From a virus, in the IMG/VR virus record IMGVR_UViG_3300035698_021428: a stretch of DNA of 49,956 nt. One strand, written 5' to 3'. Positions 649-42,720 of the stretch are shown piece by piece. Under the pieces are notes generated by a model. The model was not told the origin of the DNA. It worked only from the letters and a program-made list of their open reading frames with translations, and did no database searches. The translations under genes and the position numbers were made by a program. Numbering within the stretch: position 1 is the stretch's first letter; each line of letters opens with the position of its first letter.

Positions 649-1803
649 ATGACAACACCTAATTGGACAGAAGACGTTAGAGCAAAAGGTAACACAAAAA
701 TTACCTGGGCCAATCATCTTTGCGATGACGAGCAAGCGAACGTTGTCGGTCGCGTCGTTTTTGTTCGATCATTCGGTTCGTTGACCTTCATCGTTATCCG
801 CGATGCGGCAGATAGTATACAGATTGGACTGAAGGGCAAGATTGCTCCGCCGCCGATGTGGAGCATTATCTCCGTTCATGGCGTAACTGGTAAGACCAAG
901 AAGGGCGAGCATACTGTTTGGACAGAGAAGTTTGAGTTGCTTGCTGAATGCAACGGAAATATGCCTGACAAGTTTCATGGCATCGAAAATGCTGAATACA
1001 TTTACAACAATAGGCCAGCGCATCTTATCGCTAATCCTGATCATTCTCATAATCTAATGATGCGTAGCCGAATTATTCGGGAGCTTCGTAGACGGCTTGA
1101 AGATGTTCATGCCTTTATGGAAGTCGAAACTCCCTTATTGAACGATGAACCTACAGGTGCCAATGCTAAGCCGTTCATAACTCATCATAATGCAGAGAGC
1201 GAAGACAAGTACCTGAGAATTGCTCTTGAGGTTCCGCTGAAGAAAGCTATCATTGCAGGTTTTCCTAATGTTTTTGAAATCGGTCGTGTATTCAGGAATG
1301 AAGGCGTTGACCGAACTCACCGCCCTGAGTTTACGATGGTTGAGATGTATTCATCTCCTGGTACGCTACAGAACATGAAGGATCTGTTCATTGACCTTGT
1401 ATCTCATTTGCGTGGAGAGTATATCAAGATTCCGACCTATGAGTATGACGACCTTGTAGCTGAACATGGCGAAGATTTTGATGAGCATATGCAGGAACTT
1501 TGCTTCGTCGCTGGTCAGCCTCTTGAACAGACACCGCTTTGCAAGGCTCGTGCTGATGGAAAGGCTGATAGGTTCGAGATCTTCGGTAGAGGCTTCGAGA
1601 TCGCCAACGCTTTTCAGGAGGTTCATACCGCCGAGGAACAGAGAGAGCGTCTTAGCGGCCAAACAGAAGGCTCTGATGACGGCTTGATTGGCGCTCTTGA
1701 GTACGGAATGGCTCCAACAGGCGGAATGGGTATCGGTATTGACCGATTGGTTATGTACCTGCTTGAAATAAACAATGTAAGAGACGTAATTCTTTTTCCA
1801 TAA
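649..1803 (+). CDS. lysS: lysyl-tRNA synthetase-like class II aminoacyl-tRNA synthetase, compact (384 aa)
   Basis: N-terminal OB-fold-like segment (VVGRVVFVRSFGSLTFIVIRD). Motif 2 'FEIGRVFRNEGVDRTHRPEFTMVEMY' is LysRS-type (FRNEG / H.PEFT). Motif 3 is 'GGMGIGIDRLVMYL'. About 120 aa shorter than bacterial LysS. Confidence 0.8.
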   Translation: MTTPNWTEDVRAKGNTKITWANHLCDDEQANVVGRVVFVRSFGSLTFIVIRDAADSIQIGLKGKIAPPPMWSIISVHGVTGKTKKGEHTVWTEKFELLAECNGNMPDKFHGIENAEYIYNNRPAHLIANPDHSHNLMMRSRIIRELRRRLEDVHAFMEVETPLLNDEPTGANAKPFITHHNAESEDKYLRIALEVPLKKAIIAGFPNVFEIGRVFRNEGVDRTHRPEFTMVEMYSSPGTLQNMKDLFIDLVSHLRGEYIKIPTYEYDDLVAEHGEDFDEHMQELCFVAGQPLEQTPLCKARADGKADRFEIFGRGFEIANAFQEVHTAEEQRERLSGQTEGSDDGLIGALEYGMAPTGGMGIGIDRLVMYLLEINNVRDVILFP

Positions 1804-6679: not shown

Positions 6680-6762
6680 GCTGATGTGAGCCGAATTGGT
6701 AAGGCAGCACTCTTGTAAAGTGCCGAGGAAACTCACTGCAGGTTCGAGTCCTGTCATCAGCT
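6680..6762 (+). tRNA. long-variable-arm (class II-like) tRNA; hand-read anticodon UGU (6714-6716)
   Basis: Perfect acceptor gctgatg/catcagc. Leu/Tyr-like D loop gaattggtaa. Anticodon arm gcact-ctTGTaa-agtgc. The 14-nt variable arm has stem gag/ctc and a GAAA loop. T arm gcagg-ttcgagt-cctgt. Confidence 0.6.
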
Positions 6763-6768
6763 TTCAAA

Positions 6769-7005
6769 CGAGAAGGAGAACAGCCAACCCATCGCTCTAC
6801 CCGTCACTGTTTCCATACGGATGAGAGGAAGGTCAGGACTGCACTTCGCAAAAACTCAGGAGGCCGTAAAATAGCCGTTCGAACTGGGGAGGCAGCAACC
6901 TCAAACAAGCCTAGCGTGGGCGAAGCGCTATAATGGTTGGGTTGGGGGCCACAAGATAAATGATGGGATAGAACAGGATCCTGCCTACGGGCACTTTCCT
7001 TCTCG
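6769..7005 (+). ncRNA. rnpB: RNase P RNA, bacterial type-A-like but compact (~237 nt)
   Basis: CR-I-like 'GAGGAAGGUCAGGAC' at 6825-6839 (E. coli: GAGGAAAGUCCGGGC). 'AGAUAAAUGAU' at 6954-6964 (E. coli: AGAUGAAUGAC). 'AUAGAAC..UCCUGCCUAC' at 6968-6988 (E. coli: ACAGAACCCGGCUUAU). The P4 helix 6830-6838/6979-6986 has bulged U6833 and three compensatory changes. The P1 helix is 6769-6779/6995-7005. No credible ORF. Confidence 0.8.
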
Positions 7006-7031: not shown

Positions 7032-7382
7032 TTAGCATTTCTGGTTATGTCTATTTTTTCTACCATTGCCTTTATTTAGATTACCGTAATTCGGCGTAAG
7101 AGAGTGACAATTAGGGCATAGTATTTCCAAATTAGTTTCTACATTATTTTTGTAGTTTCCATCTTTATGATGTATAGTAAGGGGCTTTTTGTTTGTAATT
7201 TTGTTTACTCTATCCCAATTACATTTTTCGCATTTTTCTCCTCGAATCAAATAAAGATATCTTCTAACAAAAGGTGAAATATTCTCGCCAGCTAGACCTG
7301 TTTTTTGTCCATTTTTCCATTTGCTAACATTCGTTTTAAAAACAAATTCCGAACTACATTTACGAGAGCAACATTTATTCAA
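7032..7382 (-). CDS. HNH homing-type endonuclease (116 aa)
   Basis: 'HHKDGNYKNNVETNLEILCPNCHS' HNH motif plus N-terminal Cys pairs. Free-standing inside the tRNA island. Confidence 0.85.
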   Translation of the reverse strand: MNKCCSRKCSSEFVFKTNVSKWKNGQKTGLAGENISPFVRRYLYLIRGEKCEKCNWDRVNKITNKKPLTIHHKDGNYKNNVETNLEILCPNCHSLTPNYGNLNKGNGRKNRHNQKC

Positions 7383-7452
7383 ATGAAAACTGACGAGTGA
7401 AAACTGAATGGACAGAACGAGAAGCTGTCGCCGGACGCATAACCGGCATTTT

Positions 7453-7553
7453 GTCTGCGTAGCTCAACGATAGAGCGCCCAACCTGCGATACAGTGTGCC
7501 CTTGGGAGACTGTCAGCTATGGGATGTTGCTGGTTCGAATCCAGTCGCAGACT
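7453..7553 (+). tRNA. tRNA-like gene (101 nt) with normal acceptor, D and T arms but a ~46-nt irregular anticodon region; anticodon not assignable by eye
   Basis: Acceptor gtctgcg/cgcagac. Arg-like D arm gtagctcaacgatagagc. T arm gctgg-ttcgaat-ccagt. Between them, cccaa...(a/t)tggg encloses the hairpin acagt-gtgcccttgggag-actgt. Confidence 0.5.
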
Positions 7554-7740
7554 TTTTGGATCGTTAGAGGTCTTCCACAGTTTTTATTCGGGCACGAATA
7601 ATGTTATTCTGGATCAAAGGAAGAGCCGGGTCTTTAGCCCTGTAGGAATCGCTGTCAAGGCGAGGAATCTCGAAATCACATTATGCGCATATGTCTTCGA
7701 GCAACGAGATCGGTGAAAGGCCGGCATAACGATCTGATAT

Positions 7741-7813
7741 TCCGTCTTAGCTCAATTGGCAGAGCAGCATACTCGTAATATGCAGGTTATCGGTTCGATG
7801 CCGGTAGACGGAT
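7741..7813 (+). tRNA. tRNA-Thr (CGU)
   Basis: Acceptor tccgtct/agacgga. D arm gctc-aattggc-agagc. Anticodon arm gcata-ctCGTaa-tatgc. T arm atcgg-ttcgatg-ccggt. Confidence 0.8.
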
Positions 7814-7886
7814 TTTAGTGAAAAAGAAGGAAAGCCAATATCGGATTTATTCTCAAAAATTAATGCCAAATTAAATCGATAAACTT

Positions 7887-8705
7887 TTATTCTGCATATG
7901 TTCTACGATACCAACCTTCATCTTGTTTGTGTTTAGATTCATTTAAGAACCAAGTGTAGTTACCTTTTTCTACAGATCCGTCTAACTTCTCGCTTCTAGC
8001 GGAACCATCTAAGAATCCAAAGTTGTTCTTATGATCTCCGTGCCAGTCGCCGTTGACAATATCTTTCTCGTATTTTTCTTCATCTGTATATCTACCTGAA
8101 TCCATCTGCGCCGCATCGCCGAGGACTATAAATCGAGATGGAACTGTCATGATATTGTGTATTTTCATTCGTTCGGTATAATTTCCGCCGCTACGATAAA
8201 GATTTTCAAACCCTTTTTTCGAACCTATATCACAATATAACCAGTCATTTGTAAAGTAACTTGTACCTAAAGCTCTCCCAACTGTGTGTTGATCTTGCTC
8301 ATTATGCCAAACAGTAGGCTCGCCGCTAGCGTAGTAACTTGTCCCGTTGTCTAACGGGCATGCAAAGATTTCTCCTCGTAAGCCAGTTGGGTAATATGCA
8401 TTTACTGGTCGAGCCTCTCTAAGAGTAAAGATATCTAAATCTGGATCATCAATAGCATCAAGAGATCCGCCCCACATCCATCGAACATTTCTTTCATAGT
8501 GCTCATCTGAAACAGGTACATTTTCATCATTTGAATCTGCATACATCGCCCAAGAAAGCAAATGCTGTCTTTGGTTGGATAAGCACTTAAGATTCATGGC
8601 AGTTTTTCTAGCAGAAGCAAGAGACGGAAGAAGAATAGCTATTAGAAGAGCTATGATGGATATAGAAACCAGCAACTCGATGAGGGTAAAACCTTGTTTG
8701 CGCAT
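7887..8705 (-). CDS. prepilin-type N-terminal cleavage/methylation domain protein (DUF1559-like pseudopilin), 272 aa
   Basis: 'MRKQGFTLIELLVSISIIALLIAILLPSL' is the type IV pilin-like leader plus hydrophobic helix. 'ARKTAMNLKCLSNQRQ' and the C-terminal 'HKNNFGFLDGS' resemble the DUF1559 family. Confidence 0.8.
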   Translation of the reverse strand: MRKQGFTLIELLVSISIIALLIAILLPSLASARKTAMNLKCLSNQRQHLLSWAMYADSNDENVPVSDEHYERNVRWMWGGSLDAIDDPDLDIFTLREARPVNAYYPTGLRGEIFACPLDNGTSYYASGEPTVWHNEQDQHTVGRALGTSYFTNDWLYCDIGSKKGFENLYRSGGNYTERMKIHNIMTVPSRFIVLGDAAQMDSGRYTDEEKYEKDIVNGDWHGDHKNNFGFLDGSARSEKLDGSVEKGNYTWFLNESKHKQDEGWYRRTYAE

Positions 8706-8826
8706 ATTTTACTCCGTAAGAATTAACTATGTATATATGCTTGTTTTTCGATAAAAATCCTTCATTGCAAAATCTACTCCCCAAGTGTGGCGGTAAAAAA
8801 TTAGTGTCATACATTTTTGGTATCAT

Positions 8827-9297
8827 ATGAAGAAAGGAGTTATGATGTCTAAGAAAAACGAAGATCATAAGATATATCTAACTTATGAATCTGGCGAAAG
8901 CGGCGGAGGAAATGTGCCAGGAGAATCTGGCCCATATTGCCGACAAGAAGATTCCTATGTAACATTCGAACTTCTTGGAGCATGGACAAAAGAATCAGAC
9001 TGGGTTGAAACAGTAACCGTTAACTTCTTGCCAAAAAGTAACGAAAGAATTTATGTTGTAGTAGTTCGTTATTCATCAGGACATACTTTCGGAAATTCAA
9101 GCGGGCACTGGCACATTGAGGGAGTATACAACAACCGAGACAATGCTGAAGCAATTGCCAAGACAATCGTTAATAAAACCTACAAAGAAGACGGCTACCT
9201 GCCTTGGGAAGGGTACTTCGAACGTCTCGAAGAGGTGAGTGTGGAAAGTATGGCCCCTGATGAAGGCAGGACCGTTTATAAAAATAAGAGTTACTAG
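8827..9297 (+). CDS. hypothetical protein (156 aa)
   Basis: ORF track. Ends in TAG and is followed at once by a strong terminator. Confidence 0.6.
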   Translation: MKKGVMMSKKNEDHKIYLTYESGESGGGNVPGESGPYCRQEDSYVTFELLGAWTKESDWVETVTVNFLPKSNERIYVVVVRYSSGHTFGNSSGHWHIEGVYNNRDNAEAIAKTIVNKTYKEDGYLPWEGYFERLEEVSVESMAPDEGRTVYKNKSY

Positions 9298-9304
9298 GTA
9301 TTCG

Positions 9305-9336
9305 CTGGTGCTGGACTAATCTTCAGCACCAGTTTT
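9305..9336 (+). terminator. rho-independent terminator
   Basis: Stem ctggtgctg/cagcaccag (9 bp), then TTTT. Confidence 0.75.
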
Positions 9337-9369
9337 CAAGTGCAATAAAAATATGATAAACTTGAGTGT

Positions 9370-9912
9370 ATGATTGATTACTCAAAAGATGATTGGTACG
9401 CCCTCGTAAGCAGAACCTACAAAGACCGCACAGAGGCTCGCTCAGGGCTTCCGCTCATGAACCATATCGATGAAGGTTTCAGGATCCTTGAGGCCATAGG
9501 AGCGAATGACGCTGCTATGAGAGCTTATTTCATCCATCCTCTTGTTCAGGATGATGAATCGCTCAAAAAATTCTTCTACGGCGAAGAACGAATAGAAAAT
9601 ATGTACGGCGCTGACTGGAACGGAGAAATCCTTCTTCTAGCCATGGAATACAGATCAGTAGCTAACGCATTTCTCTCTGACATGACTATTCTAGGAGTAG
9701 ACCAGATTCGTTTGAGCCCCCTAAAAGAAGTCAACGATATGTTGATTGCAAGCAAAGTTTTAGATCGCAAGAATTTTGAGAATCTTAAGAACATTTCTCG
9801 TGATTGTTTTGATATCCTTGACAAATATTTTAAGCTATGGCTTGAACGTTTAGGGATTTCAGAAAGGCAATATCAGAAACTTTGTAAAATATCGGTGAGA
9901 ACCTCATCATGA
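9370..9912 (+). CDS. hypothetical protein (180 aa)
   Basis: ORF track. ATGA overlap with the next gene. Confidence 0.6.
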   Translation: MIDYSKDDWYALVSRTYKDRTEARSGLPLMNHIDEGFRILEAIGANDAAMRAYFIHPLVQDDESLKKFFYGEERIENMYGADWNGEILLLAMEYRSVANAFLSDMTILGVDQIRLSPLKEVNDMLIASKVLDRKNFENLKNISRDCFDILDKYFKLWLERLGISERQYQKLCKISVRTSS

Positions 9913-10286
9913 ATAATGAAGAAGAATTGCTCAAAGCAGCTTTAGATCGTTGCGAGATCACTCATGAAGAGTTATCTTCTCACAAGATCTTTTATGAGCA
10001 GATATTCATGGGAGCAGGAGCTAGCCATAACTCTAAAGATAAAAATCGGTTCAATATGGATTTTTCAGGACAGGACTGCGCTTTACTTTACGAAAAAGTG
10101 AGAATAGCTTTATCTATGCTTTCTGGAGTCCAGCAATTAGAAACAAGCATATGTTCTTCACAAATGGAACCCGATGAGCACCTAGAAACGATTGAGTGCG
10201 AAACAGGACAATTAGAAATGATTGTTCAAGAAATAGCTATGGCTCTTACTGGAAAAGAAATAGGATTCAAAAATGAAAACGACTGA
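9909..10286 (+). CDS. hypothetical protein (125 aa)
   Basis: ORF track. Translationally coupled to both neighbours. Confidence 0.55.
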   Translation: MNNEEELLKAALDRCEITHEELSSHKIFYEQIFMGAGASHNSKDKNRFNMDFSGQDCALLYEKVRIALSMLSGVQQLETSICSSQMEPDEHLETIECETGQLEMIVQEIAMALTGKEIGFKNEND

Positions 10287-11158: not shown

Positions 11159-11241
11159 GGTGGCTATGGCAGATTGGTAATGCACCTGGTTGTGGACCAG
11201 GAACCGTAAGGTTTATGCGGGTTCAAATCCCGTTAGTCACC
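11159..11241 (+). tRNA. tRNA-His (GUG) with encoded G-1 and an unusual 15-nt variable arm
   Basis: 5' g-gtggcta resembles E. coli tRNA-His GGUGGCUA. Anticodon arm cctgg-ttGTGga-ccagg. Variable arm aacc-gtaa-ggtt-tat. T arm gcggg-ttcaaat-cccgt. C73. Confidence 0.7.
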
Positions 11242-11249
11242 CTTTAGTT

Positions 11250-11321
11250 TGGGCTTTAGTGTAATCGGTAGCACAACAGTTTTTGATACTGTCAGTCTGG
11301 GTTCAAGTCCCAGTTGCCCAA
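11250..11321 (+). tRNA. tRNA-Gln (UUG)
   Basis: U1:A72. Anticodon arm acagt-ttTTGat-actgt, the same loop as E. coli tRNA-Gln. T arm ctggg-ttcaagt-cccag. Two U-U mismatches at the base of the acceptor stem. Confidence 0.7.
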
Positions 11322-11336
11322 TTTGAAAGGAAATAT

Positions 11337-20069: not shown

Positions 20070-21881
20070 ATGATTATTGAACGTCAGTTTGAAAGCGCAT
20101 TTTATCATGCTCCCATTGGATTCGCTATCGTCTCTTTCGAAGGATTGTTTTTACGAGTCAATAAGGCTCTCGAAGATCTTCTTGGCTACTCAGAAGAAGA
20201 ACTACTACGAATAACTTTCTATGACATAACTCATCCTGATGAACAAATACTCGGTAGGGAATGTATCGCAGAACTTATGAGCGGCGAGAAAGATTTTTGC
20301 CAGTTCGAAAAACGGTACATCCACAAAAACGGTCAATCAATATGGTGCCTGCTCAACACTTCCGTTGTTCGCAACGAGCGGAATGAACCTGTACATCTAG
20401 TTTCTCAAATACTAAACATACACGAGAAAAAAGAAGTTGATCTAAAACTACATAGAGAAAAACAACAGACTCAAAAAATACTTGATGCTATGGACTCTTT
20501 TATCTGGCATAAAGATACCAATAACAATATTCTTAGAACCAATAAAAAGGTAGCAGACAGTCTTGGCCTTAGAAGATCTGATATTGAAGGTCATTGTTCA
20601 ACTGAGTTTTACCCTATGGAATCGAAAAAACCGATATTTGGAATAACAGAACCAGTCTCTACCAAGAATGGCAAGAAATGGGTTTCAACTGACAAGATTC
20701 CAATGTTTGATGATGATGGAGAAGTTACAGGCATACTCGTTGTTTCAACTGATATAACCGAGATTAAACAACAAGAGCAAAAGCTTGAAGAGTATAGCAG
20801 TAGGCTTGAGGTTGCTCTCGATGCTGGCAATATAGGTATTTGGATATGGTATCCTAAAGAAAATCGTCTTGAATGGGATGATCGGATGTTCGATCTTTAT
20901 GGTAGAAAGAAAGATGATTTCAACGGAACTGTTGAAGACTGGTCTCGTTCTTTGGTTGAAGAAGACAGAGACAATGCCTGTGATAACATAGATCAATCGT
21001 TAGAGAAGGGCGTCCCGTTTATTAGCGAGTTTAGAATTCTAAAAAACGGAGAAATTCGGCACATTACAGCTTATGCGCTTCTTGAGTTAGATGACGAAGG
21101 CGAAATTGAAAGCATGATTGGCGCAAATTACGACATAACCGATATGAAGCGGACTGAGGCCAATCTAAGGAGATCCAATGAGGATCTTGAAAGGTTCGCC
21201 TATGCTGCGTCGCACGACCTTAGAGAGCCTCTTAGAACGATCAAGGGTTTTGCTGACCTGTTAGATTCTAAGTACAGCGACGGTTTTGATGAGACTGCTG
21301 AAAAGTACATGGCCTTCATAAAGCAAGGTTGTCTAAAAATGGAAACCCTCATTAACAGCCTGCTTGCTTATTCCAGAGTTGACAGAGATATGGAGTCTGA
21401 CGAAGTAGATGTCGATATGAATGCCACTGTCAGGACAGTATGCGAATCTTTGATGGCAAAAATAGCAGAGAATGATGCAGACATAGAATGGGATAAAAAT
21501 TTACCAGTAATACAGTCAAATTCTAATCTGATGTTTCAGCTATTGCTAAATCTTATAGGCAATGCGGTGAAGTTTAAAAGCGAAGACAGACGATGCAAGG
21601 TATGTATTACTTGCGAAAACTATGATACTGATGACGAGTTTTTAAAGTTTTGTGTCAGAGATAATGGTATAGGTATCGAGGAAAAATTCCAAGATCGTAT
21701 ATTTGAAATCTTTCAACGATTACATGACAGGTCTATGGAAGGGACAGGCGTTGGTTTGGCTCTTTGCAAGAAAATAGTAGAGAATTTTAATGGAAAGATA
21801 TGGGTGGAATCTGAGTATGGAAAAGGATCGTTATTCTGTTTTACACTCCCTAGGGGAAAGACTATCAATAAGAATAACTAA
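20070..21881 (+). CDS. cytoplasmic multi-PAS sensor histidine kinase (603 aa)
   Basis: Three PAS-like repeats. H-box 'FAYAASHDLREPLRTIKGF'. N box 'LLLNLIGNAVKF'. G1 'VRDNGIGIE'. G2 'GTGVGLALCKKIV'. No TM segment. Confidence 0.9.
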   Translation: MIIERQFESAFYHAPIGFAIVSFEGLFLRVNKALEDLLGYSEEELLRITFYDITHPDEQILGRECIAELMSGEKDFCQFEKRYIHKNGQSIWCLLNTSVVRNERNEPVHLVSQILNIHEKKEVDLKLHREKQQTQKILDAMDSFIWHKDTNNNILRTNKKVADSLGLRRSDIEGHCSTEFYPMESKKPIFGITEPVSTKNGKKWVSTDKIPMFDDDGEVTGILVVSTDITEIKQQEQKLEEYSSRLEVALDAGNIGIWIWYPKENRLEWDDRMFDLYGRKKDDFNGTVEDWSRSLVEEDRDNACDNIDQSLEKGVPFISEFRILKNGEIRHITAYALLELDDEGEIESMIGANYDITDMKRTEANLRRSNEDLERFAYAASHDLREPLRTIKGFADLLDSKYSDGFDETAEKYMAFIKQGCLKMETLINSLLAYSRVDRDMESDEVDVDMNATVRTVCESLMAKIAENDADIEWDKNLPVIQSNSNLMFQLLLNLIGNAVKFKSEDRRCKVCITCENYDTDDEFLKFCVRDNGIGIEEKFQDRIFEIFQRLHDRSMEGTGVGLALCKKIVENFNGKIWVESEYGKGSLFCFTLPRGKTINKNN

Positions 21882-22302
21882 AATACTTCTAGTTGAAGAT
21901 AACCCTGCGGATATAGAACTAACCAAAGAAGCTCTGAAATGCAAAACATGTCAACCTAGCTTACATGTTGTTACTGATGGAGAAAAAGCTATACAGTTTC
22001 TCCTAAACGAGGGAGATTACAAGGATTCTCCTAGACCTGATATTATTTTTTTGGATCTCAACCTTCCAAAAATGTGCGGAAAAGAGGTTCTTTCTATCAT
22101 AAAATCGAACGATGAATTGAAAAGTATACCTGTTATCGTTTTAACAACTTCTGAAAATGAGATTGACATAAATCAGACGTACCAAATGCATGCTAATTGC
22201 TATATTAGAAAACCTGTTGATTTTGAGTCTTTCAGAGAAGCTATACATTCAACAAAGAGTTTTTGGTTTACAGTTGCTAAACTACCGGAAAGCGAGAAGT
22301 AG
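21817..22302 (+). CDS. stand-alone CheY-like response-regulator receiver
   Basis: 'ILLVEDNPADIELTKEAL...PDIIFLDLNLPKMCG...PVIVLTTS...HANCYIRKPVDF'. The start is ATG 21817 or 21790, overlapping the kinase 3' end. Confidence 0.85.
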   Translation: MEKDRYSVLHSLGERLSIRITKILLVEDNPADIELTKEALKCKTCQPSLHVVTDGEKAIQFLLNEGDYKDSPRPDIIFLDLNLPKMCGKEVLSIIKSNDELKSIPVIVLTTSENEIDINQTYQMHANCYIRKPVDFESFREAIHSTKSFWFTVAKLPESEK

Positions 22303-22304
22303 CA

Positions 22305-22745
22305 ATGGACACGACTAGCGTTCTTCTTCTTGATGATGATCATGCATTTGCAAATTTGTTCAAAGAACACCTAACTGATCACGCCAAGGATCACTCAAAT
22401 ATAGAGCTTACTCACGTTGATTCGCTAAAAGCTATCGAGCTAGAGCAGCCTTTTGATATTTATTTTATTGATCACAGGCTCTACGGAAGACCTGCTTCCA
22501 TTGAAATTGTAGAAAGATTAAAAAACGCCGGTTTCGGTGGAAAGATTTTTGTTGTTTCTAAATATGGTGATTTTGATCTTCTCAAAGAACTCATGAAGCT
22601 GGGAATAGACGGGTTCATTGATAAAGATGAGATAAATTACGAAGAACTTGTCAGATTCATTGATAGTTTAAATGCTACTAAGTCTCTGCTTCGTAACCTG
22701 AACAATAAATTCGAAGAGCTAAAAAAGAAGCCTACAGACAGGTGA
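22305..22745 (+). CDS. second receiver-domain-like protein (146 aa), divergent
   Basis: 'VLLLDDDHAFANLFKEHL...FDIYFIDHRL...FVVSKYGD'. Starts 2 nt after the previous stop. Confidence 0.65.
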   Translation: MDTTSVLLLDDDHAFANLFKEHLTDHAKDHSNIELTHVDSLKAIELEQPFDIYFIDHRLYGRPASIEIVERLKNAGFGGKIFVVSKYGDFDLLKELMKLGIDGFIDKDEINYEELVRFIDSLNATKSLLRNLNNKFEELKKKPTDR

Positions 22746-22770
22746 ACAAAATAGTCGATATACTCGATAT

Positions 22771-22971
22771 ATGGTTACACTCACATTGGCAGGCATCGTT
22801 TCAAGCGGCTTCGGCCTTCTTTGGTTGATTCTCATCATTGTTGCTGTTCTCAGCGTCATTGGTTCTAAATCACACTCAGGATTGGCGAAAATTCTTTGAA
22901 TCGCATTTATTATTCTATTCCCATTGATCGGCATGATTTGCTGGGCAATCTTTGGACTGAATAAGGGTTGA
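22771..22971 (+). CDS. small two-TM PLDc_N-like (cardiolipin synthase N-terminal-like) membrane protein with an in-frame TGA at 22897-22899
   Basis: '...LSVIGSKSHSGLAKIL[TGA]IAFIILFPLIGMICWAIFGLNKG' matches the family pattern '..K.lW.llil.lP.lG...Y..fG'. The TGA falls on the conserved Trp. Confidence 0.5.
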
Positions 22972-23036
22972 ACATGATTTATTTTCGCATAGAAAGGTTG
23001 GTTTTCCTGTAATTATTTAATTACAAGGAGACCAAC

Positions 23037-23366
23037 ATGTGTAGAGCATCGCGCCGCCGAGAGACTCAAAGAGTACAGAAACGCAGGCACAACCTTATCG
23101 CTTCGATTCACGGGCGAGAGGGATATATCAGTTGGAGCGGAGTGTACATAGAAACTCTCTGGTGGCTGAATGAAAGAAACATTGGACAACTAAAGAACGA
23201 TTTACCAACAGAAATGATTTCGCCTTTTGGGAGCGAGCGGGATTATTGGCTGCGCGGAAAAAGAGCGAAAGCTGCTCGGTCCAATCTCTCTTTTGCAGAA
23301 GAACTTGAAAAACTCGGCTTCAGTCACAATATTAGTTTTAACATAGACGGTTCAACCAAACTTTGA
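23037..23366 (+). CDS. hypothetical basic protein (109 aa)
   Basis: AGGAGA RBS plus ATG. Confidence 0.55.
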   Translation: MCRASRRRETQRVQKRRHNLIASIHGREGYISWSGVYIETLWWLNERNIGQLKNDLPTEMISPFGSERDYWLRGKRAKAARSNLSFAEELEKLGFSHNISFNIDGSTKL

Positions 23367-23436
23367 GGCTAGCAGGTGATTGCGTTCTGTTATACAATGT
23401 GGCGAACACCATTTTATTCCTAACGGAGAACAAGTA

Positions 23437-26127
23437 ATGCAAGACAATGATTCCGGCGCAATCCGAGGATCATCAGGCGATCTTTTGATCCCTGAAGGTT
23501 CATATGCTCATTTTTAAGGACTAACAACTGGCGCAATTTCGACCAAGGTTGGGCCTGCAAGCGTTTCGCAATCGGGGCAAGAACGTCCTGTTGCGTTCGA
23601 TCCAGCAAGGCGACAATTCATTGAAGTTAGCCGAGAAAGTTCGGTCAAACTCAATGTTATCGCTGATGAAACCAGTTATGTTATTCTTTCAAATCCGTGC
23701 ATTGCAGTCGCAGACGGCGATGACCAGCTTATTTTTCCAGGATCTTCGGACAAGATTCCCAATCAAGGTCTAGAGAGCGGTCGAAAAGTTGTGGTTCATG
23801 GACCTGTCGAATTTTCGCTTTGGCCTGGACAGACTGCAGAAGTTGTCCCGGGTCATGCTCTTCGCTCAAATGAATATCTTGAACTTGTTGTTTATGATGC
23901 TGATGAAGCAAAAGCCAACTGGGAATCAGCCTCCGTTGTTGAGACCAAGAAAACTGGCGGCGATAAAGAAGATAAAGATGATACGCAGGTTACGTCTACT
24001 GCCCCTGCTGATCTTCTTATGGGACAACGATTGGTTGTCAAGGGAACTGAGGTTTCATTCTATCGTCCTCCAACTGGTATACAGGTTGTTCAGAACGAAG
24101 ACAATATCTTTATTCGACAAGCTGTTTCCCTTGAATTACTTGAATACTGTATTCTTATCGACGAAAATGGCAACAAAAGGTATGAGAAGGGACCAGCAGT
24201 TGTTCTTCCTCGTCCATCTGAACGATTTGAAAAAAGCTCTAGAGGCAATAGAAAATTTAGAGCCATTGAGCTTCAAGACCAGGCAGGCGTTCATATCAAA
24301 GCGCTCAAGACCTACCAGGATGACGACGGAAAAGATCGCAAAGCTGGTGATGAATTCTTCTTGACGGGCAAAGATCGTCCTATCTACTACCCTCGCGAAG
24401 AAGAAGCCGTTATTCCTTATAGCGATGGCGAAAAGATTCACTTCGCTGTTGCGGTTCCCAAGGGGGAAGGCCGCTACGTTATGAATAAGACCACCGGTGA
24501 GATCGCAACGATCATCGGCCCCAAGATGCTTCTTTGCGATCCGACTAATGAAGTCATCGTTCGTCGCATCCTTACTGACAGACAAAGTAATGATTGGTAT
24601 CCTGGTAATGATAACTCTAGGCAATACAATCGCAATCTTCGAGAGATTCAGGAAGCTGCAGGAACGGCTGGTGATTTTGTTGACGATACATCAACACGGC
24701 AGGCAGCAACCAGGGGGCTTCATTCGCTGCGAGAAAAAGGCAATCCAAGAGTAGGCGGAGCTTCGTTCTCAAGTATGTCCGCTTCCGCCGGATCGGAACG
24801 AGGTTTTGAAAGCTTCGAACAAGCTGGTTCAGCAATGATGGGAGAACTAGATCGGCCATCAAGCTATACAGAACCCAAAAGCATTACTCTTGATACACGT
24901 TTTGCAGGAGTTCCTGGTATTGAGCTTTGGACAGGCTACACCGTTATGGTCGTTGACAGAGAAGGAAACCGCCGAATCGTCAGCGGTCCAACCAATATTC
25001 TGCTCAATTATGACGAGTCATTAGAAATCATAGAACTTTCTACCGGCAAACCAAAATCAACAAAAGGATTGATTCGCACAGTATATCTTCGCAGAGATAA
25101 TAATAAGGTTTCCGATTATGTTGAAGTTGAGACAAAAGACCATGTGAAAGTACAAGTAAAACTGTCATTCCTGGTCAATTTTGTTGAAGACAATCCTAAT
25201 GACGATCAGGATGATACCGATTATCAAGAGCGTTGGTTTGCTAGCGAAAACTATGTCAAGCTTCTTTGCGATCATGTTCGCTCGATTCTTAAGGGCGAAG
25301 CTAAAAAGCACGATATCAATAACTTTTATATCAACTCAACATCTATCATCAGAGATATCATTCTTGGTAATCGTCAGGAAGATGGCAGAACAGGTATGTT
25401 CTTTGAACATAATGGTATGCATGTTATCGATGTTGAGGTTCTTGGAACAGAAATTCTTGATCACAGCATTGCTTCGCTACTTACTGGCTCTCAGCGAGAA
25501 GCAGTTGAATCAAGTATTCGTCTTCAGTCTGCCGAAAGAACGCTTAATGTAACTGAGCAAATGGAAGCGATGTCTCGTAAAGAAGCAGTTGCTAAGAATG
25601 AGACCAAGAAGCACGCACACGATCTAACGATAGAAAGCATTGGAAGAACTCTGAAGGAGTCCCTAGCAGACATATCTTCAGAACAAGACAAGTCCGTTCA
25701 TAGGCTTACTGCTCGTACTGCCGAAGCTGAAGCTACTAAAATGGCAAACGTTATTGAGGCCGAAGCTGCGGTCGCAGGAAGCGAGATTGAGCGAGAAGAT
25801 CAGAAACTCGATCATGAACAGAAAATCTTAGAAGCAGAAGAAATAGCTAGGCTTGACAAGGAAGCGATTGAAACCGAAGTCAAGGCCACAGTTGATAAGC
25901 TCAAGGCCCTTGAAGGTTCGGGGTTGACCGACGTTCTTGCTACGCTTGGTCGAGAAGACTTCTTGACCCGTATAGCTGAATCCAGCAATCTTGAACGATT
26001 GATTGGCGGAGCTAGCGTCCAAGATACTTTGACCGGAATTTTCGGCGTTGAGTCGCCTATTGCTAAGGCGTTCGTTGCTATCAAGGCAGGAAAGCCGCTT
26101 GCTCAATCTTTGCTCAATAGCGACTAG
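23437..26127 (+). CDS. major vault protein (MVP) homolog: vault repeats, SPFH-like shoulder and cap-helix (~896 codons) with one in-frame TAA at 23515-23517
   Basis: GGAGA RBS plus ATG 23437. 'LLIPEGSYAHF*GLTTGAISTKVGP..ERPVAF' vs human MVP '[25 protein letters not shown]..ERVLF'. 'GDEFFLTGKDRPIYYPREEEAVI' vs '[21 protein letters not shown]'. 'YVMNKTTGEIATIIGPKMLL' vs '[20 protein letters not shown]'. E/A/K-rich C-terminal helix. The track ORF 23791 starts at an internal GTG. Confidence 0.8.
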
Positions 26128-26158
26128 TAACGGCTGATATCAGCGATGATACGATTCA

Positions 26159-26188
26159 GAGCCTCCGTCTTTTGGCGGGGGCTCTTTT
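26159..26188 (+). terminator. rho-independent terminator after the MVP gene
   Basis: Stem gagcctccgtc/ggcgggggctc, loop tttt, then TTTT. Confidence 0.8.
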
Positions 26189-26302
26189 ATTTGTGTATCA
26201 TGTGAATAAAATATATGATAGAATAAACTTTGTACTAAAAGGCGGACAAGGCGCTGCCACTGACGAGGAAAATGTGCCGATGGGATAGTAGAACAATAAA
26301 CT

Positions 26303-26655
26303 GGGGGCGATATGGAATCGCTTCAGTAGGGTAGGAAGGATTGTTGCGAGCCGGGGAACCATGCTTAGGCCCCGTAAAAAAGTATGGAATAATTAGTTGC
26401 CAACAGCAACCCACTCCGCATCGCTGCTTGACAGCGGTGCCTGCAAGTCCTGAACGCCGATACGGGATACGCAGAAGATTTTCGGCTGGTCGTCTGAACA
26501 ACTGTTTCAACCAACAGACGATGAGATAAAGGATGAGACCGCTCCCTGTCGCAGACTGTCGCTGGTCGGCTAGGGGCTAAGATAAAACATCGACTACGCT
26601 CGTAGAAACGCCCAACAAACTACTGAACACGGCGGTTCGAATCCGCCCGCCTCCA
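26303..26655 (+). ncRNA. ssrA: tmRNA (SsrA), tag ANSNPLRIAA
   Basis: 5' GGGGGCGAUAUGGAAUCGC.. pairs with 3' ..GGCGGUUCGAAUCCGCCCGCCUCCA (G3:U70, T arm). The tag ORF GCC AAC AGC AAC CCA CTC CGC ATC GCT GCT TGA lies at 26399-26431. Confidence 0.85.
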
Positions 26656-26664
26656 TTTAGAAAG

Positions 26665-26760: not shown

Positions 26761-26994
26761 ATGCGATTCATTCAATGGTTTATGCAATTGTTTATCGTTC
26801 CTCCTAAATCAAAACAGAAAAGAGCGTGCCTGGCCTGCGGCTGCATAGGAGACTATAACGATACTTCCTGGCACTGTTCTGTCGCTTCTATTGGGAGAAA
26901 TATTATAGAAGATGATTTTTGTCCTGATTGCAAAATAATGATTATTGAAAAATATGGCGAAGATATTCTTACACCAGTCGTTACTAGCAAGTGA
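26761..26994 (+). CDS. small zinc-ribbon-like protein (77 aa)
   Basis: AGGAG RBS. 'CLACGC...CPDC'. Confidence 0.55.
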   Translation: MRFIQWFMQLFIVPPKSKQKRACLACGCIGDYNDTSWHCSVASIGRNIIEDDFCPDCKIMIIEKYGEDILTPVVTSK

Positions 26995-27019
26995 TAGTAG
27001 CTCTTGTTATAATGTATCC

Positions 27020-27337
27020 ATGAATATCATCACTATCAACGGCAGACGATTTGAGGTCGAAGGAAATAATGTTTCCATTAGCAACGGGTGCGTGTCTGTT
27101 GATGGCAATCATGTTCTTGAGATATCAGGCGATATTAAAATCAAATGGCAAGGAGACCTGGCTAACCTGGAATGCGATAGATCAGTTAACTGCCATGATA
27201 TTAAGGGGAATGCATCTGCCGGCGGTTCTATCAATTGCGGCGATGTCAATGGCTCTGTTAAGGCCGGCGGCTCTGTCAACTGCGATGATGTAGGCAAATC
27301 TGTTAGCGCTGGCGGCTCTGTCAGAACGAATCAGTAA
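27020..27337 (+). CDS. beta-helix repeat protein, bactofilin-like (105 aa)
   Basis: Repeats 'AGGSINCGDVNGSVKAGGSVNCDDVGKSVSAGGSV'. TATAAT at 27008-27013 lies 6 nt before the ATG and there is no SD. Confidence 0.45.
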   Translation: MNIITINGRRFEVEGNNVSISNGCVSVDGNHVLEISGDIKIKWQGDLANLECDRSVNCHDIKGNASAGGSINCGDVNGSVKAGGSVNCDDVGKSVSAGGSVRTNQ

Positions 27338-27400
27338 AAGAGGTTGTTTAGGGCTGGATCAGTATTACTCTTTAGTGGATTATCGCTAAGGAGATATATT

Positions 27401-28564
27401 ATGGGTAGATTCCAAGACCTGATCGCAACTTCTGGTAGTATTGTAAATCTCAAAAATAAATTAGCATCTAAAGATGTTACTCCGAATAGAACTATTTTCT
27501 CTGCGCAGCTTCTTGCAAAACAAAAAGCCATTGTAGGTAAAGCTGTAGTTTCTATGCCTTTTACTGGCGTCAATCAACCGATTGAGCATCCAGATTTTAC
27601 TTACGACTATTTCATTAGCAATTTCTATTCTATGTGGCTCACCGGAACAAGCGATAATTTTGATAATATGAGTATGGGATGGGGAATTCCTACCAGAGGT
27701 TATCCTTACTTCTTTGATAATCTTATTCAACCGCTTATAGATAAAGGTTGTAAACGGTTTCATATCCATCTTCCTCACGGAAGACTGACGCCAGGAGTCA
27801 TGGATTTTTCTTCTTTGCTTCTTGCTATGGAAAACGGAAAGGATTTTGCTTACGAAGGTTTTTACGAAGCATTAGATGAAATTTATCTAAGCAATCCAGA
27901 TATAGTTTTTCTTTTGTACTTCGGGACAGTTCGTCTTGAGCGATATTTTCGAGATGCGCTTGACGAAAATAGGGTTGGAGATTGGATCAATAGAGCAATT
28001 GATAGCATTTTACCTGCTATTCATTCTCCGAATGTAGACATAGGGTTTGATGCTCCAATGGGAGATCCTGCTTCTTGGCCTCAAGATAATCCGGTATATC
28101 ATTTTATATCTTTAGTCAGGGCTCTTAAAGCAGAGCAAGGACGAGAAGTATATGTTGAGCCCCGACAACATGCTACAGGAACAAATTGGTTTGATTTCAA
28201 TGTTCTTAGCATAGAATCATTTTGGAACAGATCTGATCCTGATAGACATCAGGATGCTTCATGGGCAATTCATAACGGAGATATTCAAGCAAATGTTCTT
28301 CGAATGGATCTAACTCCTCTTCCGAAAGAAAACGGAGTAGTAACAGATTGGAGAACCTGGCTTCCCCAAAGAATTTCATCCATCATGATTGAAGACAAAT
28401 CCGGCAAACATCCATACATACATTCTCATGGACTTCATAGAGTTGCTGTCATGAATCCTCCTTCAACGGGTTCATATGGCCCCTTGGCAGAAAATATGAG
28501 AGAAATCTACGAAGCGACTATATCGTATGCTCAAGCCAATGGATCTTTATCTCCAATACAATAA
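27401..28564 (+). CDS. hypothetical protein (387 aa)
   Basis: AAGGAG RBS plus ATG 27401. No motif recognised. Confidence 0.65.
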   Translation: MGRFQDLIATSGSIVNLKNKLASKDVTPNRTIFSAQLLAKQKAIVGKAVVSMPFTGVNQPIEHPDFTYDYFISNFYSMWLTGTSDNFDNMSMGWGIPTRGYPYFFDNLIQPLIDKGCKRFHIHLPHGRLTPGVMDFSSLLLAMENGKDFAYEGFYEALDEIYLSNPDIVFLLYFGTVRLERYFRDALDENRVGDWINRAIDSILPAIHSPNVDIGFDAPMGDPASWPQDNPVYHFISLVRALKAEQGREVYVEPRQHATGTNWFDFNVLSIESFWNRSDPDRHQDASWAIHNGDIQANVLRMDLTPLPKENGVVTDWRTWLPQRISSIMIEDKSGKHPYIHSHGLHRVAVMNPPSTGSYGPLAENMREIYEATISYAQANGSLSPIQ

Positions 28565-31079: not shown

Positions 31080-32729
31080 ATGGCAACCAAACTTGGAAAA
31101 GGCGAGTATCCCAGCGATCATTCGCCAGAAGACTTTAAATGCTTTGGCCCTCCTGCTCAGGAAGACGGTCAGTTTGACGGCATGATGATGGCTGACATGG
31201 GCTGCTTCAAGCAAGATGGTACAGATTCCAACAAATTCTACCATGGCGCAGTTGTTCAATCCAAAAAAGATGATAGCTGGTATGCCTACTATGAATGGGG
31301 CAGAACTGGGAAAGGTTCTTCTGATAAGCAATTCGTTTGTTGTTCGTCGAAAGAAGAAGCTGAACAAGTATTCTGCAAGCAGATGCACTCCAAAAATGAC
31401 AAGCGAGGCGAATGGGTCAAGATAGGCAGTAAAGACATTCTAAGAGCGAAGACAGGCAAAGACTGCTACCTTATCCGTCCGCTCGCAAAGCGATCTCATG
31501 GCCTTCCAGACGCTCAGACAATCGTCCATGACGATAGCGGCAAAGCTGGCAGCGCCGTCGCTAAGAAAACAACCAAAAAGACCGGAAAGAAAACCAGCAA
31601 AAAGATTGCTAAGAAAAAATCAAACGTTGATCCAAAGACTCTTAGTCTTATGAAGGATATGAACGTTGCAGCGGTTGAATTTACTCGCTCGCAGGTTGAT
31701 AGCGATGCAGTCCCAACTCAAGGCGTTATCGATGAAGGCAGAGATGTTCTTATCGAAGCGGAAAAAAGAGTTAAGAAAATTGGATCAAAGCTTGAAGAAC
31801 AAATTAGCGATAGAGACCTTCGAGATCTAACGTATCATCTCTATTCTCGAATCGGGAAGCCAAAGCCTCTCAATACGCTTGAATCTGCCTGGATTCTTTC
31901 TCAAGACAACATCATGCGTTGGCGAATGGACCTTGATACATTTGAGCAGGCATTATATGCTCTTGACCTAGGCATTGGCAGCGATACTCAGAATACCTTT
32001 GATCCGTTCAATGGCATGAATATTGAGATGATTCATCTCGACCCGACTAAAACGGCTGAAGGTCAATTTATTCACAATTGGATGCCTGGCGCAACGAAAA
32101 ACGTCCACGGGCACGTTGGCGACATGAGTATTGTCAACGCATGGGGCGTTCGTCAAACTGATTTTGCACCAAAATTTGAAGCAACTGCTGCAAAGATTGG
32201 TAATCGCAATTTCACCCCATCTGACAAACCTATCAAGCAGCCCCGAAAACGATCTGATATCTCGCCAGAAATGGCTAAACTATTCGATCAAGCAAATGTC
32301 AATCTCTTATTCCATGGAACAAGATCTGTCAATGTTCCTGGCATTCTTCGCACAGGGCTAAGGCTCCCCAGAGAGCTTGTTGGAGTTGTCCTTACTGGCG
32401 CAATGTTTGGACCCGGTATCTATTGGGCCGATGATTGGAAAAAATCAGACGGTTACACTTCTCGACCAGGAACTTATTGGTCAAGAGGCGGGGGACAGGT
32501 CAAAGGTCGCAAGGCTTTTATGTTTGTTGCCAATGTTGCTCTTGGCAATCCTCATATTGCTCGCGGTCCTCAAGGATATACTGCTCCGCCGAAAGGTTGC
32601 GATTGTGTTGCAGGTCTTGCTAATAAGAGCAGCGTAGCCAACAACGAATGGATTGTTTACGACAGTATGCAAAATTCTCTTACATATCTTATTGAATACG
32701 AAGTTTCAGGCAGCAGCCGTCGCTGGTAA
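31080..32729 (+). CDS. poly(ADP-ribose) polymerase-like protein: WGR, Lys-rich linker, helical regulatory domain and PARP catalytic domain (549 aa)
   Basis: WGR 'FYHGAVVQSKKDDSWYAYYEWGRTGKG'. Linker 'AKKTTKKTGKKTSKKIAKKKS'. Catalytic H-Y-E triad: 'LLFHGTRSVNVPGIL', 'FGPGIYWADDW' and 'NNEWIVYDSMQNSLTYLIEYEV' (PARP1: '[22 protein letters not shown]'). Confidence 0.9.
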   Translation: MATKLGKGEYPSDHSPEDFKCFGPPAQEDGQFDGMMMADMGCFKQDGTDSNKFYHGAVVQSKKDDSWYAYYEWGRTGKGSSDKQFVCCSSKEEAEQVFCKQMHSKNDKRGEWVKIGSKDILRAKTGKDCYLIRPLAKRSHGLPDAQTIVHDDSGKAGSAVAKKTTKKTGKKTSKKIAKKKSNVDPKTLSLMKDMNVAAVEFTRSQVDSDAVPTQGVIDEGRDVLIEAEKRVKKIGSKLEEQISDRDLRDLTYHLYSRIGKPKPLNTLESAWILSQDNIMRWRMDLDTFEQALYALDLGIGSDTQNTFDPFNGMNIEMIHLDPTKTAEGQFIHNWMPGATKNVHGHVGDMSIVNAWGVRQTDFAPKFEATAAKIGNRNFTPSDKPIKQPRKRSDISPEMAKLFDQANVNLLFHGTRSVNVPGILRTGLRLPRELVGVVLTGAMFGPGIYWADDWKKSDGYTSRPGTYWSRGGGQVKGRKAFMFVANVALGNPHIARGPQGYTAPPKGCDCVAGLANKSSVANNEWIVYDSMQNSLTYLIEYEVSGSSRRW

Positions 32730-35513: not shown

Positions 35514-38157
35514 ATGAGTATTCCACAAAATGCAGATCTTTCCATAGTATCTCAAGCTGAAGCCGATCGCCACAAGATGGTTACAGATAATAATGAAGTT
35601 GGAGGAACAAGGGCATTTGTTTCAAATCCTGATTCAAATTTCTCATTTTCTCATCCGAAGGTTCTTCAGCTTGGAAATACCACATCAAATAAAGACGCTG
35701 TTCTTGCGTATCGAATTCTAGTAGTAGAATCAGGCGGGAAAGCAAAGACCCCAGATTTTAATTGGCATTCTGGTATATTTTCTACAGGAGAAAATCTTCG
35801 GGTAACTCATAACGGATCATATTATTACCAGTTTAGAACAATGTGGGATGTTGGCACAAGCGGAAGCTTACCAGAAGGAACAAGTATTATTGAGCTTCTT
35901 GAAATGTATTCCACTGCTGAATCAGCAATTGCTTCAACGCAAAAAAATTGCTTTTTATATTCAAAAAAGCAGCGGCGTAAATCACTTAGTCTGCAAGCTT
36001 GCTGATCCTAATATAGGATACGAAGATCCCACAGAACTATTGCAAAATGGTGTTTGGTATGATATAAGAATGAAATATAAGCCAGAAACAGGAAGCTCAG
36101 CAGATGGAATTTTGCTTGTAGAACAAAAACTTGCGACAGCTAGCTCATGGACTACTTTGATAAATGTAACAAATCATACTCAGAATGCTGATATAATGTG
36201 GGTAGAATATCAGCACAAGGCCTCAAGCGGATTGTCTCCAGGCATAACATCTTCTAAAACCTGGATTGCTTCTAGTTATCAAAGATTAGATAGTTTTGAG
36301 GCTGACGATTATGAATATAATAGATTTAGAACGTCAACGTGCCTGGACGTATCTTCGTCTATAGCTAAAATTAGAGTTCACTGCGATGATGAAACAATTG
36401 ATACATCTTCTGGAGGGTTTATTGTTCAATACGGAACAAATTCGACTTTATCATCAGGTGTTATTGATTCATCCTATACAGCTTTTAGCGCTAGAACCCA
36501 TGACTGCGCTACCGTATCTCTAACTTCATTATCTGCTGATACAAGATATTATTACAGGTTAAAATTTCAAGATGACGAAAGTTCTCCTACCGATACTTAT
36601 ACTGTGCCAGAAATACGGTCATTCAAAACTCTAGCAACTACTACTGGCGGAACTCGAAAAATACTAATTGGAGGATGTAAGGGGCACGCAGGATGGAGAG
36701 GCGGCAATGCTGCTTTCGATCACTTAATAGCTGCTGAAGGCACTCCTGACATGATAATATTCAATGGAGACATGATATATGATACAGACCTAACGCAATT
36801 GGGTTCAGGAAATAGCGACTATGAACTATGGGACTTAACTGAGGATAATTATTCATCAGCTTATAGACTTTCATTTGGAGAATATGATTTCGCAAAAATA
36901 CTTTCTGAATGCGCTTTCTTTGGGATGTGCGAAGATCATGAATTCTTTAATTCATGTGATGGTAATATGCGAGGGCAAGCAGTCAATATGGGATTAGCAG
37001 TTGATAATGCTGGAACAGCATATCCTACTTCTCATATGAATACAACATATCTAAACGGAGGCGGCGCGCCAGTTACAGCCGATGGTATATTCACCATAGC
37101 CACTGATGTTATGGCGTCATGGTGGGGAAACGGAACAATAAACGCAGCCGACTCTGGTTCAGGACGAGATTATTATCGTTCGTTTGAGCATGGTAATGTA
37201 TTAGTTCTTATGTTAGATACCAGAACACGAAGCACTGCAACTAGCCTAATTACATCAGCACAAGAGACATGGATTCAAACAACTATAGCAGCTTCGGACG
37301 CCAAATATATTGTTATTAGTAGCCCCGCTTCATGGGGAGATTATCTTATCAATATAAGTCCAGCCGAGGCATGGGGAAGCAATGCAAATCTCAGAGCGCA
37401 ACGTGCTAGTATATTTAACTGGATAAAAAACAATGCTTCTGATAAAGTAGTTTATCTTATAGGCGGAGATAGGCATACTCCTTATGTTGCGTATCCTAGC
37501 GATTTAACCGGACCAGATGGTCCTCTCAAAAGAATTGCAATGGCATCGCCATTTAACCAAGATAACAATTTCAACACAAGCGCTATTACCGCAATGGCAT
37601 CTGACCCATCAGTCGTATCAGTTATAAGTACCGATGATTATACTGGCTTATCAATGGTCAGAACTTCTGGTTTATTAGTAGAAATTGACGAAGCAACGGA
37701 TACCGTTCGATTAGTTATGTATGATGATAATGGAAATAAATTGATAGATGAAAGCGACTCCTATGCATTATCAACCGAAACCAGTAATGAAATATCAAGG
37801 GCCATATCTATAACAACGGCTCCTACGCACATACCTTCTCCGACCTTTTCTCTAGCAGGAACAAGCTATGCAACAAGATTTATTGATCCGAACATAGAAG
37901 CTATGATAACAAAGCAAAATCTAAATGCGCCTGTTAGCGTTTCCTTTGAATCAGTAACTAATGATTATGAAATCCGCTATACCACAAATAGCAATAGAAA
38001 TCCAACAAGCAAGAGTATTCTATATTCTGGTCCTTTGAGCATAAGTAGAAACTTGACTGGCGTTGATAATACTGTTGTTAAAGCCAGGATATTCCACAAA
38101 AATAATCCTGGAATTCATAGCCGTATAACTAAGTTAGAATTCAACGTAATTATGTGA
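35514..38157 (+). CDS. LamG-like plus PhoD-like metallophosphatase (alkaline phosphatase D family) fusion, ~880 aa, read across a +1 frameshift at an A7 run (35941-35947)
   Basis: Track ORFs 35514..36005 and 35848..38157 overlap. Removing one A gives '...AIASTQKIAFYIQKSSGVNHLVCKLAD'. PhoD_N-like 'LSADTRYYYRLKF'. Metallophosphatase motifs 'FNGDMIYD' and 'GMCEDHEFFN'. Confidence 0.7.
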
Positions 38158-42648: not shown

Positions 42649-42720
42649 GCTTCGTTAGCTCAATGGTAGAGCAATAGTTTCTAAAACTACAGGTTGTCGG
42701 TTCGAGTCCGACACGAGGCA
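42649..42720 (+). tRNA. suppressor tRNA, anticodon CUA (reads UAG); body resembles tRNA-Lys
   Basis: Acceptor gcttcgt/acgaggc. D arm gctc-aatggta-gagc. Anticodon arm atagt-ttCTAaa-actac (anticodon 42681-42683, A27-C43 mismatch). T arm gtcgg-ttcgagt-ccgac. A73. Confidence 0.75.

Follow-up and report, generated by a model that had tools for sequence, protein, structure and literature searches.

An in-frame ochre codon in the major vault protein gene of a huge-phage-like element most probably arose through a recent, ordinary nonsense mutation or through the miscalling of a base

Can a major vault protein (MVP) be made from a gene whose frame is closed by an ochre codon after 26 residues? The question is raised by a 49,956-nucleotide stretch of viral DNA (IMG/VR record IMGVR_UViG_3300035698_021428, the whole of which is called the window below), in which the frame of an MVP homolog has TAA as its 27th codon. 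The original prediction had put three options side by side: readthrough or suppression of the ochre codon, an error in the sequence, or fresh inactivation of the gene. Our results speak against ochre suppression and in favor of the two more mundane options, and we conclude that the genetic code is most likely read here as usual, the TAA being either a recent nonsense mutation of the ordinary kind or an error of base calling.

The interrupted gene and its relatives

The MVP frame lies on the plus strand at 23437–26127 and comprises 896 codons. Its start region (23437–23514) consists of 26 sense codons, beginning with ATG, that encode MQDNDSGAIRGSSGDLLIPEGSYAHF; 15 of the 26 residues are identical to those of the closest MVP, P0001, which is encoded on a 498.6-kb marine contig listed in IMG/VR as a viral genome (L001, L077). 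A Shine-Dalgarno sequence, GGAG (23425–23428, plus strand), stands 8 nt 5′ of the ATG (local sequence, taacGGAGaacaagtaATG), and ACGGAGA is also found before the ATG of the ortholog. The ochre codon occupies 23515–23517 and is followed by 91 in-frame codons homologous to the first MVP repeats (23518–23790), and then by the rest of the frame (23791–26127), at the head of which GTG 23791, the first possible restart, opens a 778-codon ORF that appears in the ORF listing in the same frame. The ribosome binding site is present as predicted, and from the ATG to this GTG all of these coordinates are exactly those originally given. The stretch behind the TAA indeed contains no in-frame ATG, GTG, or TTG, and the TAA is, as claimed, the sole interruption, with the frame open for 869 more codons up to TAG 26125–26127. 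A second stop, TAA 26128–26130, adjoins that TAG; this tandem would cap readthrough of the TAG after one residue, amber suppressors being encoded in the window.

Farther upstream, a motif of the form TAGCAGGTG...GCGTT...TACAAT (23370–23398, plus strand) was recognized by DNA alignment with the 498.6-kb contig and is a putative promoter, which a simple sigma-70 scan did not detect. In the pairwise alignment, this motif, the ribosome binding site, and the ATG of the MVP gene are all conserved with the ortholog. On the 3′ side of the gene, a hairpin of 12 pairs (8 of them G-C) followed by a T-tract (26158–26195, plus strand) resembles a strong intrinsic terminator. Because an in-frame start is lacking over 91 codons and all of the ancestral expression signals (promoter-like motif, ribosome binding site, and ATG) lie upstream of the stop, an intact MVP could be made only by reading through the TAA, in agreement with the original prediction.

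To judge from its matches, the conceptual protein is a genuine MVP homolog. The shoulder domain (Pfam MVP_shoulder, PF11978) was recovered at 87.8 bits, where the cut-off is 25 (E 6.7e-25), and the vault repeat domains PF01505 and PF17795 (Pfam Vault and Vault_3) at 29.4 versus 27 bits and 33.5 versus 28.8 bits, respectively, each of the three being over its Pfam gathering cut-off; solved MVP chains matched the conceptual protein at E 8e-25. There are 2384 homologs in the databases, the best of them 55% identical across 99% of the length, and identity to 60 homologs was 40–57% in full-length, collinear alignments that included the N-terminal repeat. The start-less stretch past the TAA had been described as still MVP-like, and this held: residues 1–163, stop included, are 56% identical to the best homolog. 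The 26-residue peptide before the TAA scored 12.6 bits on a profile of the homologs' N-termini, as compared to 7.3 bits for the best of 2000 shuffles. The homology on both sides of the TAA is real and beyond chance.

MVP homologs in bacteria and phages have already been described in preprints, and the gene studied here, classified by its sequence, is a new, divergent member of this known family in a huge-phage-like element. With the known phage and viral homologs it shares a common domain set and a collinear full-length alignment, N-terminus included. It differs from them in having just 55% identity to the nearest known sequence and in lacking the uninterrupted frame for the whole protein that characterizes the family, one in-frame TAA breaking it at codon 27.

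Comparison with relatives identified the residue that the stop replaces. In an alignment of 60 close homologs, the TAA column contained Gln in 59 and Ala in 1, and the codons TAT TTC CAG TCA of the syntenic ortholog correspond to CAT TTT TAA GGA in the window. The stop had originally been aligned with the Leu of the MVP 'HVLD' segment, which we reproduced against eukaryotic MVP; the bacterial and phage relatives have Gln there. More variation appears at the column when 84 viral loci are compared (Q 44, L 22, S 10, R 3, E 3, K 1, T 1), all of the nearest relatives having Q. Intact, unannotated MVP homologs are also present in LR756500 (462 kb) and LR756501 (735 kb), two published genomes of huge phages, and both have Gln at the column. 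IMG/VR viral contigs hold at least 225 MVP loci, and among the 85 viral MVP copies examined, that of the window alone is broken by a stop; none of the 84 other loci has an internal stop, the lone asterisk (L010) marking that gene's natural end. The stop is therefore shared by no relative (CAG in the ortholog, 0 of 84 loci), where the nearest relative is 55% identical.

The sense codon that, according to the original prediction, orthologs might reveal at this site is present, as CAG in the syntenic ortholog and as Gln in nearly all close homologs. This result points to the ordinary options, and orthologs at 55% identity cannot tell a real mutation and an assembly error apart. No match to the same genome or to a close relative was obtained by megablast against phages or by exact DNA pattern in IMG/VR; peptide patterns of the window had no match in IMG/VR, JGI metagenomes, or GTDB genomes, and neither did an exact look-up of two neighbouring proteins. 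Because CAA is the commoner Gln codon in the window (270 CAA versus 163 CAG), a single C-to-T transition would be enough to generate the TAA.

Is TAA read as sense in the window?

In this window, TAA is an ordinary terminator. Of 55 curated genes, 19 have TAA as their stop, as do 25 of 66 when ORFs are counted (35–38%), and two of these ends are verified by orthology: the histidine kinase 5′ of MVP and a 387-aa protein 3′ of MVP each end where the ortholog ends. All three stop codons are used as gene terminators, and a genome-wide reassignment of TAA, TAG, or TGA was rejected for this reason; opening any one stop raised the ORF cover of the window from 86% to 94–96%, which is not diagnostic. 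When the window was scanned systematically for open segments with a single stop between them, MVP was the sole interrupted gene among the ∼55–66 in the window, and no window gene contained an in-frame TAG. One further candidate, an in-frame TAA at 27335 that would join 26942–27334 to 27338–28561, is a true stop, as AAGGAG and ATG 27401 start the next gene and the ortholog aligns only downstream of this start.

Functional suppression would mean that the TAA is decoded as Gln by a phage suppressor and that MVP synthesis is conditional on its expression. The suppressor would be either a UUA-anticodon tRNA encoded outside the window or a CUA tRNA with C34 modified to read A. Several features of the window would fit such an arrangement. 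Along with a tmRNA and two aminoacyl-tRNA synthetases, it encodes two different tRNAs with anticodon CUA (amber suppressors), at 42649–42720 (68.6 bits) and 45505–45577 (63.9 bits), both on the plus strand, which are the best-scoring tRNAs of the window. The stop lies on a Gln column, Gln being the usual meaning of recoded TAG in phages; the frame downstream is intact; and the window covers about 10% of a genome that is probably about 500 kb. Conditional synthesis by suppressor tRNA has also been proposed already for phages in which TAG or TGA is recoded.

A phage-like genome with suppressor tRNAs and a stop on a Gln column is indeed what this locus has in common with known phage stop recoding (TAG to Gln, code 15; TGA to Trp, code 4). 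However, the codon is TAA, a routine terminator here, and it occurs once, in a single gene, whereas many such codons are found in the genes of recoded phages. The encoded suppressors, moreover, are unable to read it, as the anticodon CUA pairs by standard pairing with UAG only and not with UAA. The search for a UUA-anticodon tRNA proposed for the rest of the genome was run on the window only and gave none among its 14 tRNA genes, a permissive covariance-model scan included. In IMG/VR, no relatives of the two tRNA(CUA) genes were found by exact pattern, and the one hit for TTA-anticodon relatives of these genes was a chance match and no tRNA. TAG ends 12–15 window genes, and no pattern of back-up stops close behind them, as in adaptation to amber suppression, was seen. 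At the TAA itself we found neither a leaky stop context (base +4 is G, UAA-G) nor a stimulatory RNA structure downstream (fold z = −0.48).

Published surveys of phage recoding likewise name TAG and TGA as the recoded stops, with TAA still the preferred terminator (10.1101/2021.08.26.457843); for huge phages, genetic code 6 has been excluded explicitly (PMC7162821), and no recoding of TAA in phages is reported in these surveys (10.1101/2021.08.26.457843, PMC7162821). With the 84 related loci free of internal stops as well, the readthrough or suppression that had been proposed found no support, and we consider functional ochre suppression improbable. Less probable again is its more specific version, in which the ochre codon serves as a switch, TAA-27 being read as Gln only when a phage ochre-reading tRNA is expressed, so that MVP is conditionally translated. 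If true, it would give phages their first natural example of regulation by TAA suppression, and decoding of TAA would matter in a genome endowed with suppressor tRNAs, a tmRNA, and aminoacyl-tRNA synthetases. To our knowledge, neither a reassignment of ochre nor its use as a programmed sense codon has been observed in any phage or bacterium.

Near-cognate decoding would operate on a different scale. In E. coli and yeast, UAA is read through by tRNA-Gln(UUG) by means of a G36-U wobble at the first codon position, and the window carries a tRNA-Gln(UUG) gene (11249–11322, plus strand), its only near-cognate UAA decoder. This tRNA could give low-level readthrough and would insert the ancestral residue, Gln. 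Unlike programmed recoding, this is a low-level error process, and the window offers no stimulatory context for it.

Several other candidates at the site were rejected. A frameshift or bypass at the T-run TTTTTAA is unnecessary, as homology resumes in the same frame at the very next codon. For a non-canonical restart, the AAGGA within TAAGGAC lies 15 nt from the nearest ATT, and no ATG, GTG, or TTG comes after it. A gene on the minus strand was likewise dismissed: just short ORFs (46–62 aa), without support, overlap the site.

Nature and age of the lesion

The explanation that we favor, and hold to be probable, is a single C-to-T change at the conserved Gln codon, carried in the DNA of the sequenced population, that leaves the allele null or very leaky. 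The Gln-27 codon, CAA (or CAG by way of CAA or TAG), would have become TAA by transition; ribosomes would initiate at the intact ribosome binding site and ATG 23437 and terminate normally after 26 codons; and, with no restart for the next 91 codons, the allele would be null or, at most, very leaky, with UAA decoded by the near-cognate tRNA-Gln(UUG), and the original Gln restored, at a level well under a few percent. We infer that termination at codon 27 actually happens and that the T is present in the DNA and not in the consensus alone. A disabling lesion at codon 27 with no restart for 91 codons is what defines a nonsense allele, and the gene resembles fresh nonsense alleles and pseudogenes of accessory genes (e.g., natural amber or ochre phage mutants) in having one disabling transition at a CAA/CAG codon, intact expression signals, and no more decay. 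We found no feature in which the MVP gene of the window departs from this category.

An artefact of consensus or base calling is possible but doubtful. The gene would then be intact with CAA (Gln) as its true codon, the T at 23515 lengthening a run of T's (CATTTTCAAGG read as CATTTTTAAGG). The site does abut a T homopolymer, and the lesion is a lone transition that falls on a conserved Gln codon, the 896-codon gene being perfect elsewhere and bearing no other sign of degradation. However, consensus substitution errors are rare in assemblies, and a noisy long-read assembly should carry frameshifts, of which there are none in ∼55 genes. Because the neighbouring genes are collinear with their orthologs without frame breaks, and Pfam domains are complete, a real allele is favored over a noisy consensus, and a real null allele is in our view more likely than a consensus error. 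Three points run counter to the nonsense allele: the pristine 869-codon frame after the stop is equally expected of a functional read-through gene, the two amber suppressor tRNAs show that the genome tampers with termination, and the window covers only about a tenth of that genome.

In another reading, translation would begin within the frame, at GTG 23791 (778 aa) or some later ATG, and yield an N-truncated functional MVP, the TAA doing no more than shortening the protein. The GTG does open a 778-codon ORF, and the shoulder, Vault_3, and Vault domains all lie 3′ of it. Nevertheless, no convincing Shine-Dalgarno sequence precedes the GTG, and such a protein would lose ∼118 conserved N-terminal residues that are kept in the 60 homologs and the 84 viral loci, so we give this possibility very little credence. 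In the vaults of eukaryotes, it is through the N-terminal repeats that the two half-shells touch at the waist. Under either mundane reading, mutation or base-call error, the consequences are in practice confined to annotation: the locus is properly entered as an MVP homolog whose frame is disrupted by a stop at codon 27, in place of a 778-aa protein that begins at GTG 23791.

The gene shows little sign of age as a pseudogene. Conservation of the N-terminal region spanning the stop (56%) is about that of the whole protein (55–57%), deviations at highly conserved columns (32 of 236) compare with 24–29 in the nearest relatives, and no second lesion was found in the MVP gene. Among the ∼8,050 possible single-base changes in the gene, 335 (∼4%) create a stop, from which one would expect a 95% chance of a second stop at ∼72 neutral substitutions, or ∼2.7% divergence. 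Because there is no second lesion even though ∼4% of changes create a stop, any inactivation is, by this reckoning, recent.

Genome neighborhood

Apart from its stop, the locus is of interest as an MVP homolog in a ∼500-kb phage lineage with conserved synteny to a two-component system. The window contains 14 tRNA genes, a tmRNA, two aminoacyl-tRNA synthetase-like genes, a PAS histidine kinase, two response regulators, a PARP/WGR protein, and HNH endonucleases, and most of its ORFs have no Pfam match. Its gene order in the MVP region is also that of the 498.6-kb contig (kinase, two response regulators, a small ORF, and MVP, then tmRNA and porin), with 44–68% amino-acid identity between syntenic genes. 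The PAS histidine kinase, the two response regulators, and a 109-aa ORF lie directly 5′ of MVP, at 20070–23366 (plus strand) in the window and at 7173–9918 in the contig. Because this kinase/regulator block adjoins MVP in both genomes, the arrangement suggests that MVP may be under two-component control or may function together with that system.

The tmRNA gene (26303–26658, plus strand; 129.6 bits) begins 176 nt past the MVP stop and specifies the tag ANSNPLRIAA; its syntenic counterpart behind MVP in the 498.6-kb contig (13972–14325) specifies ANSNTLRMAA. About 5 kb downstream of MVP, at 31080–32729 (plus strand), lies a gene for a protein with PARP catalytic and WGR domains. PARP-like sequence was also found 1.4–6.3 kb from MVP in two other viral loci (L011, 2204–2617; L003, 3321–3713), the huge phage LR756500 included, and was absent from the 10-kb flanks of MVP in the nearest relative. 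The proximity of PARP to MVP may echo the pairing of MVP with vPARP in eukaryotes, or may be a coincidence.

Among the tRNA genes, a 229-nt match to bacterial class A RNase P RNA was found at 6775–7003 (plus strand; 49.9 bits versus a gathering cut-off of 100, E 1.8e-12). The core motifs GAGGAAGGUCAGG, AGAUAAAUG, and ACAGGAUCCUGCCUA are kept and ∼110 nt of the specificity domain is missing; the segment may be a minimised RNase P RNA in a phage-like genome, and the 22 kb of the related contig L001 gave no counterpart. Some of the tRNA genes are themselves unusual. One of 101 nt (7453–7553, plus strand; 46.9 bits), missed by ARAGORN, has an insertion of ∼30 nt in the anticodon region, and those for tRNA-His(GUG) (11160–11242), tRNA-Thr(UGU) (6680–6762), and tRNA-Arg(CCU) (2026–2113), all on the plus strand and 82–88 nt long, have long variable arms that are unusual for these acceptors. 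Of the synthetase-like genes, one is of the class II Asp/Lys/Asn type (649–1803, plus strand; E 9.7e-60) and the other is a HisRS-like ORF; a SpoU-type RNA methylase is also encoded in the window, whose load of translation genes is typical of huge phages. Finally, a predicted 163-aa ORF (35514–36005) overlaps by 158 nt, in another frame, the start of a gene for a 769-aa PhoD-like phosphatase (35848–38157, plus strand).
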